Positions 5,216 through 21,254 of a DNA stretch of 24,189 bases are shown one piece after another. Origin of the DNA: Candidatus Thorarchaeota archaeon SMTZ1-45 (GTDB lineage Archaea > Asgardarchaeota > Thorarchaeia > Thorarchaeales > Thorarchaeaceae); the NCBI GenBank assembly GCA_001563335.1, contig LRSL01000020.1:1-24189 (forward strand), read 5' to 3'. The notes under the pieces are model-generated. The model saw nothing but the letters and a program-made list of their open reading frames with translations, was not told the origin of the DNA and searched no databases. Every line of letters starts with the position of its first letter. The first letter of the stretch is position 1. The translations under genes were made by a program, and so were the position numbers.

Positions 5216-5917
5216 ATGGATTTTCCCGATGATTTGAGATTTGCAGAGGAATCTTTGAAACAGGCTGAAAAAGAATTCTTGTCTGGAAATGATGGAATAG
5301 CTGAAGCTTTGTTAGTAAAATTATCTTCAGGACCCTTTACTTCAGATACTAAAATAGCACAAGAAAAGATACAGAATCTGGATGAGTCCCGTTATGTTAA
5401 ATGGAGTCGGTGGGTGAAAAAATATGAATTCTCAGCGTCATTCTGGAAGGACGAGGGATATCCAAGTATTGATACCACTACGCATCAAGCTAGCAATCCT
5501 GATTGGTATTCAAAAAGAACAGGAACTACAACATTTGTAAAGGATTTAATGATTCATCGAAAAATATTAGCACCTACTGTTAATGGCGAGCTAAAATCGC
5601 CTCCCACTCCGCTAGGCAAACCATCAAACAGATGGCTACTTGATTTTGTTGCTCTTTCCAGTCTGCGTCTTTCTTTGAAAAACCATTGGGAGAAATTGGT
5701 ACGAGATATAGTGATGAAACGACCCCAGACCAGTCTAGTACTTGTGGCTAAAAGACTAGGTCTGGAAATTCCAGAGGTTCTTGACATCGCCCGTAAAATC
5801 AGGAATTTAGATGATCGGGTGATTGAATATGATGTAAGTGACTCGAGTAAGAATTTGACATATATATGTAGAAAACCAGATTCCAGTTTGAATCCTTTAG
5901 TAGATATAACCCTATAA
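5216..5917 (+). CDS. Hypothetical protein (233 aa), possible C-terminal HTH-like segment
   Basis: Long ORF with RBS-like AGGAGA; looks more AT-rich than its neighbours; ends 25 nt from the tRNA-Val 3' end. Confidence 0.7.
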   Translation: MDFPDDLRFAEESLKQAEKEFLSGNDGIAEALLVKLSSGPFTSDTKIAQEKIQNLDESRYVKWSRWVKKYEFSASFWKDEGYPSIDTTTHQASNPDWYSKRTGTTTFVKDLMIHRKILAPTVNGELKSPPTPLGKPSNRWLLDFVALSSLRLSLKNHWEKLVRDIVMKRPQTSLVLVAKRLGLEIPEVLDIARKIRNLDDRVIEYDVSDSSKNLTYICRKPDSSLNPLVDITL

Positions 5918-5942
5918 ACATAACCCAACTTAGAACGAAGAA

Positions 5943-6112
5943 TGGTGGGCCGGGCGTGATTTGAACACGCGACCACCGCACGTTTGAACGCGCTTGCAAA
6001 TCAAGCGTATGTGTCAATGCGGTATCTAAGCCATTTCGCAAACGAATTTGCGATACTATAGCTGTTTCGCAAACGAATTTGCAAATCCATAGCCGGGCTA
6101 GACCACCGGCCC
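5943..6112 (-). tRNA. tRNA-Val(GAC) with encoded CCA; 30-nt canonical 37/38 intron (5982-6011) and 62-nt D-arm insert at 22/23 (6027-6088) made of two tandem 31-nt introns
   Basis: Mature reconstruction GGGCCGG TG GTCT AGCCCGGCTA TGAT A CCGCA TT GAC AG TGCGG TGGTC GCGTG TTCAAAT CACGC CCGGCCC A CCA (78 nt). BHB helix TTGA/TCAA at the canonical intron; TTTTTAAT about 30 nt upstream. Confidence 0.9.
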
Positions 6113-6165
6113 AGTGAGGTCTCTCTCCCTTGTTGACGATTAAAAACATTGCGACGCAGACTTGC

Positions 6166-6600
6166 TTATCTTCCAGTACTCCCGAAACCGCCTTCTCCCC
6201 TTTCAGTATCAGACAGTTCATCAACCTCTATGAACTCCACTTCGGGCACAGGACGAATCGCCAACTGACTAATGCGCATCCCCTTTGTGATCTTGAAGGA
6301 CTCCTCATTATGGTTTATCATGATGGTCTTAACCTCACCACGATATCCATTATCAATGGTCCCTGGCGTATTGAGGACTGTTATGCCCTCTTTTAGAGCA
6401 AGTCCGCTCCTAGGTCGTACCTGTCCCTCATATCCCATAGGTATCTCTACTGCAATTCCTGTGGGTACTGCAAAACGCTCTCCTGGTCTGAGTTCATAAT
6501 CTATCGTGGAAAAGAGGTCAAATGCAACATCTCCTCTCTTTGCTGCTTTCGGTATCTTTGCATCAGGAGAGAGTCGTTTGACTCGTACAGTCACAGTCAC
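6166..6600 (-). CDS. dut: Trimeric dUTP diphosphatase
   Basis: Motifs AFDL, RPRSGLA, PGTIDNGYRGEV, RISQL, RGEGGFGSTG. Confidence 0.96.
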   Translation of the reverse strand: MTVTVRVKRLSPDAKIPKAAKRGDVAFDLFSTIDYELRPGERFAVPTGIAVEIPMGYEGQVRPRSGLALKEGITVLNTPGTIDNGYRGEVKTIMINHNEESFKITKGMRISQLAIRPVPEVEFIEVDELSDTERGEGGFGSTGR

Positions 6601-8612: not shown

Positions 8613-8691
8613 TGGTGGGATGTGGTGGGTTTGAACCACCGATCTTCGCCATATAAGAGCAATGTCATTCACCAAGCTAGACCAACATCCC
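8613..8691 (-). tRNA. tRNA with anticodon TAT (Ile-UAU) on a Val-type body; possibly a pseudogene
   Basis: GGGATGT TG GTCT AGCTTGGTGAA TGAC A TTGCT CT TAT AT GGCGA AGATC GGTGG TTCAAAC CCACC ACATCCC A CCA; full cloverleaf with two G.U pairs in the anticodon stem. Confidence 0.75.
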
Positions 8692-8693
8692 AT

Positions 8694-8767
8694 TGGTAGG
8701 CCAGGAAGGACTGGAACCTTCGATCTTCGCCATATCAGAGAGATGTCATTCGCTAGACCACTGGCCT
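8694..8767 (-). tRNA. Degenerate tRNA with anticodon GAT (Ile) on a Val-type body; likely a pseudogene
   Basis: AGGCCAG TG GTCT AGCGAA TGAC A TCTCT CT GAT AT GGCGA AGATC GAAGG TTCCAGT CCTTC CTGGCCT A CCA; D-loop lacks G18G19, T.C mismatch in the anticodon stem, T-loop TTCCAGT. Confidence 0.65.
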
Positions 8768-20970: not shown

Positions 20971-21171
20971 TTAACGATGCAGAGTAACAGCTGATCTCCC
21001 AGTCATCCATTTGTTATGTCGCGTAATTTGCTGCACATTTTTCCTATCTATTGGTGCAGGTATTTTATCTTCTCTAGATTGCTTTCTAGGAATTTTAATT
21101 TCTTGTGAGTAGTCTTGAACGATTACCCTATGTTGCGATTGGTTACACTCTTTTTTCCTAGCTATCATCAT
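20971..21171 (-). CDS. Small basic hypothetical protein (about 66 aa)
   Basis: MMIARKKECNQ...RHNKWMTGRSAVTLHR; the longer ORF-track extension to 21327 runs through AT-rich promoter-like DNA. Confidence 0.5.
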   Translation of the reverse strand: MMIARKKECNQSQHRVIVQDYSQEIKIPRKQSREDKIPAPIDRKNVQQITRHNKWMTGRSAVTLHR

Positions 21172-21254
21172 TATCACAAACTGATAATAAATTATCATAA
21201 AATAATATAAAGTTATCTGAAATTGAAAAGATATACTCATGAAATGATGATAAT
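21170..21254. promoter_or_regulatory. Cluster of TGATAAT/ATTATCA half-sites
   Basis: ATTATCA 21170-21176, TGATAAT 21182-21188, ATTATCA 21191-21197, TGATAAT 21248-21254. Confidence 0.5.

Follow-up and report, generated by a model that had tools for sequence, protein, structure and literature searches.

Two adjoining 31-nt introns in the D-arm of a Thorarchaeia tRNA-Val(GAC) gene, probably derived by tandem duplication in place

A tRNA-Val(GAC) gene of 170 nt, encoded on the minus strand of a Thorarchaeia (Asgard) genome at positions 6112-5943 of the window (the whole stretch of 24,189 nt analysed here), is broken up by three intervening pieces. These are probably all introns of the BHB type, one at the canonical position 37/38 and two paralogous units of 31 nt that touch each other at position 22/23 of the D-arm, with the pair most likely having arisen by tandem duplication in place of a single intron of a family that we call A. 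For the question of how archaeal tRNA introns arrive and multiply, touching paralogous introns in a gene that has one unit or no intron in close relatives suggest local duplication as one route. The locus would offer a rare snapshot of how small tRNA introns can multiply.

Splice sites of BHB introns consist of a 4-bp helix (H) with a 3-nt bulge on the 3' side of each H strand, the cut falling after the second bulge base. Read in order on the minus strand, the gene starts with the acceptor strand GGGCCGG, U8, G9, the D-stem strand GUCU, the D-loop AGCCCGGCUA and U22, after which come the 62-nt insert, GAU, A26, the anticodon stem strand CCGCA and the anticodon loop UUGACA. This loop is split by 30 nt after A37 and is continued by G38, UGCGG, the variable loop, the T-arm, the acceptor strand, A73 and CCA. 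Exon 1 (6089..6112) thus comprises the acceptor 5' strand, the D-stem 5' strand and the D-loop to U22; the same 24 nt stand at the start of orthologues in 51 loci, and the last six bases, GGCUAU, with H = GGCU at 6091-6094, are the 5' half of the BHB core. Intron unit 1 (6058..6088, family A, 31 nt, position 22/23) contains a hairpin closed by a UUCG loop, and its last bases are AGCU+AU, with the H strand at 6060-6063, and intron unit 2 (6027..6057, again family A, 31 nt and position 22/23) ends in GGCU+UA, with its H strand at 6029-6032. Exon 2 (6012..6026) carries the D-stem bases G23-U25, A26, the anticodon stem 5' strand and the loop to A37, including the anticodon GAC. The canonical intron (5982..6011, 30 nt, position 37/38) forms a strict BHB with H = UUGA/UCAA and bulges CA/C and AC/G (the stroke marks the cut), and so bears out the pairing rule within the same gene; orthologues occur with and without it. 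Exon 3 (5943..5981) holds G38, the anticodon stem 3' strand, the variable loop, the T-arm, the acceptor 3' strand and the CCA, which is encoded (5943-5945). Upstream, the first ~43 nt are 85-91% identical across nine orthologous loci, and a putative archaeal TATA box, TTTTTAAT, lies on the same strand at 6139..6146 (-34 to -27 from the mature 5' end).

Joined without the intervening pieces, the exons form a cloverleaf. When 6058-6088, 6027-6057 and 5982-6011 are taken out in silico, a 78-nt molecule remains that ARAGORN reads as tRNA-Val(gac), and no tRNA is called when one D-arm unit is removed and the other left. As the first-pass annotation had proposed, taking out both D-arm units restores GTCT AGCCCGGCTA TGAT, which is the D-arm of the intronless orthologues. 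Seven loci of relatives, and more in the species collection, have an uninterrupted 78-nt gene with the D-arm GUCU AGCCCGGCUA UGAU, and the D-arm reads GGCTATGAT with no insert in 24/64 parsed loci. For one of the intronless orthologues, L017, ARAGORN likewise calls tRNA-Val(gac), and its score with the Rfam tRNA model is 57 bits. The two positions at which the 78-nt product differs from L017 face each other in a single T-stem pair, which is A-U in L017 and G-C here.

The gene was called neither by ARAGORN in its default mode nor by Rfam in gathering and E-value modes; ARAGORN with introns allowed gives the same ends (5943..6112) and miscalls the gene as a tRNA-Lys (Lys(ctt)). Since standard tRNA finders miss it, the genome would appear to be without a tRNA for GUC and GUU codons. 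The assembly is a metagenome bin of 3.54 Mb in 119 contigs, with 42% G+C and 87.7% completeness. The remaining Val genes found in it have the anticodons UAC and CAC, and no second Val(GAC) gene was found, a result to be read with the completeness in mind, as a further copy may exist in the missing part. A decaying pseudogene, disabled by the duplication and with tRNA-Val(GAC) supplied from elsewhere, would agree with this incompleteness, with the failure of the standard finders and with the truncated tRNA-Val 5' fragments of some relatives (L016/L059 and L045, see below). We nevertheless regard it as very improbable, since the exons are intact and the T-stem change is compensated, every splice-site helix is intact, the ~43 nt upstream are conserved with the orthologues, contigs of three studies have the same sequence, and the assembly yielded no other gene for this anticodon.

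Two further observations concern the tRNA genes of this genome. A tRNA-Val(CAC) gene at C15:31187-31294, which ARAGORN did not call, has a non-canonical intron in the variable region or T-arm. The window also contains two tRNA-Ile genes, 2 nt apart, on the minus strand at 8613-8767, one with the anticodon UAU (8613-8691; 55.9 bits with Rfam) and one with GAU (8694-8767). An isoleucine tRNA with UAU is unusual in archaea, most of which read AUA with a modified CAU tRNA.

At the DNA level the D-arm insert is a tandem repeat. Tandem Repeats Finder gave one array at 6034-6093 (period 31, 1.9 copies, 86% matches, score 92), which is the better of only two arrays with a score of at least 50 in the window; the other, at 21170-21217, is A+T-rich, with a period of 21, 2.3 copies and a score of 57. 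In the intron register (6088-6058 against 6057-6027) the units are identical at 23/31 positions, and the 26/31 reported in the first-pass annotation is right in its own register (minus strand 6095-6065 against 6064-6034). Both units have an exact 18-mer in common, the longest exact direct repeat at offsets of 10-100 in the window, for which 30 shuffles gave at most 13 nt; the copies lie head to tail with no spacer, and their similarity is beyond chance. All eight differences between them are at the unit ends, and through one of these, U to C, a hairpin pair that was G-U becomes G-C. Across the whole genome Tandem Repeats Finder returned 276 rows, 227 of them with a period of 12-80 and two near a tRNA-like gene, and among these rows no other tandem repeat was found inside any tRNA-like gene.

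Short tandem repeats are prone to mis-assembly, and in a metagenome bin of 119 contigs the second unit could be suspected of being an assembly artefact, but we find this scarcely credible. Separate assemblies of three sequencing runs, one from each of three studies (X1, the possible source, X2 and X3), gave contigs that contain the gene. In X1 the match extends over 5880-6180 with 0 differences. In X2 and X3, from two further studies, it extends over 5880-6122, with 0 other letters within the gene and a single extra A beyond it. Both units are thus carried identically by all three, and the two units differ at eight positions, their common core being only 18 nt long. None of the runs listed as holding this stretch was an RNA run. 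A different tRNA-Val(GAC) gene is also present in the X2 sample; it lacks the canonical intron and has a single family-A intron, divergent and 32 nt long, so that several D-arm states coexist in one community. In a fourth run (X4), two 89-nt contigs of low depth match 6060-6113/6117 and then run into exon 2 and an uninterrupted anticodon loop; they represent a relative with one unit, matching unit 1, and with no canonical intron.

The comparison of orthologues for 0, 1 or 2 copies, which had been suggested at first pass, found all three numbers of D-arm introns in relatives, where they belong to three sequence families at positions 21/22, 22/23 and 23/24. Within the same genus, 18 genomes have a readable gene (this one included), of which five have no D-arm intron, 11 have one and two have two, namely this genome (G000) and G011. 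For a wider view we took the 51 loci of the species collection that have the exact 24-nt 5' exon and classed them by D-arm content. There was no insert at 16 loci, a family-B intron only at 12, a family-C intron only at six, a family-A intron only at two and an unclear 28-nt insert at one, while pairs were found as C+B at two loci and as A+B at one; the remainder were a 5' fragment upstream of another tRNA gene (two loci), another Val gene (six) and incomplete or masked sequences (three).

The position of each family was assigned from the single removal that restores the reference D-arm, with H scored for each. Family C lies at 21/22, with H = CGGC/GYCG and 4/4 pairs in all six distinct sequences, family A at 22/23, with H = GGCU/GGCU and 4/4 pairs in both, and family B at 23/24, with H = GCUA/UAGN and 2-4 of 4 pairs in twelve distinct sequences. 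The single-copy state at the very site of our pair is therefore present in relatives, in L004/L074 and L032, where a removal at 22/23 is the only one that restores the D-arm (H = GGCT/GGCT, 4/4), and in the X4 contigs. The single family-A intron of G011 is identical to unit 1 at 26/31 positions and to unit 2 at 25/31. Among the genomes examined only G000 has two units of one family. Taken together, the exon junction of the orthologues, the single family-A introns of relatives and the separately assembled contigs support the reading with which the first-pass annotation had started, of two tandem paralogous introns at 22/23, each with a relaxed BHB core of its own.

Other arrangements in relatives were also recorded. 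In L063 and L068 (C+B) and in L002/L065, which is G011 (A+B), the upstream intron sits inside the 5' half-site of the family-B intron (GCUA+UG). Because this splits the half-site, the second BHB core would form only after the first removal, and judged by these half-sites the C+B and A+B pairs are twintron-like, with a forced order, unlike the A+A pair. In L016/L059 (G003) and L045 a truncated 5' part of a tRNA-Val(GAC) gene is followed directly by another tRNA-Val(GAC) gene, which is complete and differs from it, and the truncated part in L016/L059 retains a family-C D-arm intron; these parts look like the footprint of an integration or partial duplication (compare the model of PMC3293823). 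In L024, L038, L062, L066 and L068 the Val tRNA genes have further non-canonical introns, which lie in the variable region or T-arm.

With GGCU+AU at the end of exon 1, AGCU+AU at the end of unit 1 and GGCU+UA at the end of unit 2, three cores can be drawn in which the central helix has 4/4 pairs (G-U included), namely exon/unit 1, unit 1/unit 2 and exon/unit 2. The first-pass annotation had named the first two of these helices, GGCU/AGCU and AGCU/GGCU, and both have 4/4 pairs and 3-nt bulges, as found on re-counting. Two 3-nt bulges and a 4-bp helix are available for unit 1, for unit 2 and for the outer option that spans both. The outer helix h of the D-arm is weak or absent, which makes the D-arm motifs of the relaxed kind (HBh'-like). 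Each unit supplies an inner helix, an 8-10-bp hairpin whose loop is UUCG, and the GCAAA-TTCG-TTTGC hairpin described at first pass is present in both. For five family-A units RNAalifold returned the H helix, the bulge and the hairpin, with the hairpin pairing surviving sequence changes, and the minimum-free-energy fold of unit 1 alone is the BHB core, made up of the 4-bp helix, the 3-nt bulge and the hairpin. By itself, a 4-bp helix is a weak guide, as dozens of chance two-step removals reach at least 3/4 pairs; with helix pairs this unspecific, the parse into introns rests on the comparison with orthologues. A different parse, in which an exon G separates the units (32 + 30 nt, at 22/23 and 23/24), was rejected, having 2/4 helix pairs for its first intron in a hand count.

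It had been proposed at first pass that introns placed back to back would need ordered splicing. This does not hold on paper, since removal of unit 1 first, of unit 2 first or of all 62 nt in one step would lead to the same mature tRNA, each with a 4/4 helix. The end of unit 1, AGCUAU, can stand in for the exon end GGCUAU, and it is for this reason that three cores are possible and an obligatory order is unneeded. As far as modelled folds can tell, a one-step excision of 62 nt would be as plausible as two excisions of 31 nt, and that the introns are spliced at all, as well as the route taken, is what we infer from sequence. Constrained folds, in which the canonical 37/38 intron was kept, gave -62.5 kcal/mol for exon/unit 1, -61.3 kcal/mol for unit 1/unit 2 and -63.8 kcal/mol for exon/unit 2, the outer option. 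Without constraints, the minimum-free-energy structure (-69.8 kcal/mol) joins the two units in a single long hairpin, and its 5' bulge is displaced by 2 nt. Every BHB-competent conformer is less stable than this structure, by 6-8.5 kcal/mol, which counts against our preferred reading.

These folds bear directly on a further explanation, that of one composite 62-nt intron in which EndA uses the outer BHB only, the two units pair with each other as a long inner helix and the internal sites are silent relics. Such an intron would account for the pairing of unit 1 with unit 2 in both the minimum-free-energy and the centroid folds, its outer central helix has 4/4 pairs, and its conformer is the most stable of the three that are BHB-competent (-63.8 kcal/mol against -62.5 and -61.3). 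However, gaps of 1-2.5 kcal/mol fall within the error of the model, and two of the pairs in the outer helix are G-U. The internal half-sites have also kept their 4/4 helices and 3-nt bulges despite divergence at 8/31 positions, and unit 1 folds to a BHB core as its own minimum-free-energy structure. We therefore consider a composite intron unlikely, while according it more weight than any other alternative discussed here.

The genome encodes the enzymes that splicing of the two units would call for, in the form of an alpha-like and a beta-like EndA (187 aa and 211 aa) and an RtcB ligase (E 3e-176). The two EndA genes lie at C29 of G000 around 33.5 kb and at C69 around 146.8 kb. In the 187-aa EndA the Tyr, His and Lys positions are present, the alignment with crenarchaeal alpha (catalytic) subunits (3p1z_B, E 1e-44) spans the whole protein, and the His stands where 3ajv_B has Ala; the beta-like paralogue of 211 aa is without that His. 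The alignment of the alpha-like protein is free of gaps through a region that we take to be the crenarchaeal-type loop. By these features the predicted EndA pair and RtcB fit what has been published for Asgard archaea, in which an (alpha-beta)2 EndA with an L1 loop goes with a broad substrate range (Kaneta et al. 2018, PMC5829648). In the proposed mechanism the heterotetrameric (alpha-beta)2 EndA would cut the 3-nt bulges flanking the 4-bp helix and RtcB would join the exons, to give one mature tRNA whether unit 1 leaves first, unit 2 leaves first or both leave as a single 62-nt piece.

As to the origin of the pair, the first-pass annotation had named duplication or re-insertion of an intron. 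Duplication in place is favoured, as no donor copy is found elsewhere, short of a strict separation from re-insertion. A search of the own genome gave no significant further match to a unit, and a scan of 87 genomes of the class turned up exact copies of the 18-mer in G000 (two) and G011 (one) and nowhere else, in both cases in tRNA-Val(GAC). With 1-2 mismatches allowed there were 21 class-wide matches outside G000 and G011, none of them in a tRNA-Val context and by eye all non-tRNA; four of the 21 matched a loose T-loop-like regular expression, with no tRNA-Val 5' exon. Metagenome matches to the 18-mer (45 loci) were set aside as chance, 0/45 being in a tRNA-Val context. The lack of a donor copy in the own genome, the class or the metagenomes, and of any other tandem repeat inside a tRNA-like gene of this genome, favours duplication in place over an intron family that spreads; among the 87 genomes, related copies are confined to tRNA-Val(GAC).

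Because the central helix of family A is nearly self-complementary (GGCU/GGCU), an intron of this family is flanked by a short direct repeat. The exon end ...GGCUAU and the intron end ...GGCUWW could serve as repeats for slippage or unequal exchange, by which a single family-A intron would be duplicated in place as a 31-bp tandem copy, the outcomes of such an exchange being a tandem copy or, reciprocally, precise loss of the intron. The middle junction, CAGCU+AU, seems to be the hybrid expected from the 3' end of the X4 one-unit intron joined to the exon end.

The same flanking repeat may be read in another way, with the second unit as a related intron that was inserted separately into this target, by transposition, by homing or with a GGCTAT target-site duplication, and not by local slippage. 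The direct repeats beside family-A introns are GGCTA(T)-like, and a series of insertions would produce an equally periodic arrangement. Both units are closer to the intron of G011 than to each other, the three intron families at three adjacent tRNA positions suggest a hot spot, and intron transposition has been proposed for Thermoproteales (PMC4033280, PMC4090602). Yet the repeat is also required by the BHB pairing rule and so need not be a target-site duplication, no copy was found elsewhere in the own genome, outside tRNA-Val(GAC) in the 87 class genomes or in a tRNA among the 45 metagenome matches, and the middle junction appears to match unequal exchange. We consider separate insertion improbable, though less so than a pseudogene.

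Duplication in place, the preferred reading, has its own difficulties. From the 23/31 identity of the units and the greater closeness of each to the G011 intron it follows that the duplication was not recent or that its history was more complex. The eight differences at the unit ends, together with an X4 unit that matches unit 1, imply asymmetric divergence, which counts against this reading. A tree of the 450-nt flank places G000 near G011 (82.8% identity over 448 nt) with supports of 0.34-0.40, at which the direction of change is not readable from it.

A more far-reaching suggestion is that the locus catches intron gain in the act, with a direct repeat carried by the intron itself leading through slippage or unequal exchange to a tandem pair, and with precise loss as the reciprocal event. 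We put this forward tentatively and would rate its chances at somewhat under even. If it is true, the duplicated unit would have been spliceable from the start because its own half-site was copied with it, and Asgard archaea would have a route at the DNA level for fast turnover of tRNA intron number with no need of a mobile element. One precursor could then be spliced by alternative routes, releasing circles of 31 nt or 62 nt. The locus is also a natural substrate with which to follow how EndA chooses among competing, overlapping BHB motifs.

Several known systems resemble the arrangement in part. The archaeal tRNA-Trp intron with a box C/D guide RNA, as described in PMC4090602, is likewise a tRNA intron with a structured insert; the 31-nt units, by contrast, have no C or D box motif by eye and are too short for such an RNA. 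Nearer in phylogeny, the tRNA genes of Asgard archaea are heavily interrupted, with D-arm introns that annotators miss (Valentin-Alvarado 2024, PMC11291895), and a preprint of October 2026 (10.64898/2026.10.13.758758) also reports heavy interruption and leaves the route of intron arrival open. Our case has in common with these accounts the superphylum, the missed D-arm introns, repeated gains and BHB-compatible sites, whereas their focus, as far as their texts present it, is on Atabeyarchaeia and Jordiarchaeia. The words 'tandem', 'adjacent', 'nested' and 'thor' have no match in the main text of the preprint, and its supplements might list Thorarchaeia cases. Subscription papers and preprint supplements aside, we found no description of tandem BHB introns in an archaeal tRNA in the literature.

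For Thermoproteales, tRNA genes with several introns, up to three in each, have been described and intron transposition has been proposed (Sugahara 2007/2008 and Fujishima 2010, as given in PMC4033280 and PMC4090602). The likeness, as these sources present it, extends to short BHB introns, non-canonical positions, no more than three introns per gene, a broad-specificity (alpha-beta)2 EndA and the recurrence of related sequences. The introns of one gene there lie at separate positions with exon between them, and related copies are found in different tRNA genes, whereas the two related copies of the present gene adjoin at a single position and no other gene has a copy.

Twintrons are introns within introns and are found as group II/III introns in Euglena plastids and as stwintrons in fungi. 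They share with the present pair the placing of two introns at one site, both of which must leave before the exon junction is restored (compare PMC11782384). Twintrons are nested, are removed in order and use a different chemistry, whereas the two units described here lie side by side, each with complete half-sites, and on paper could be removed in any order.
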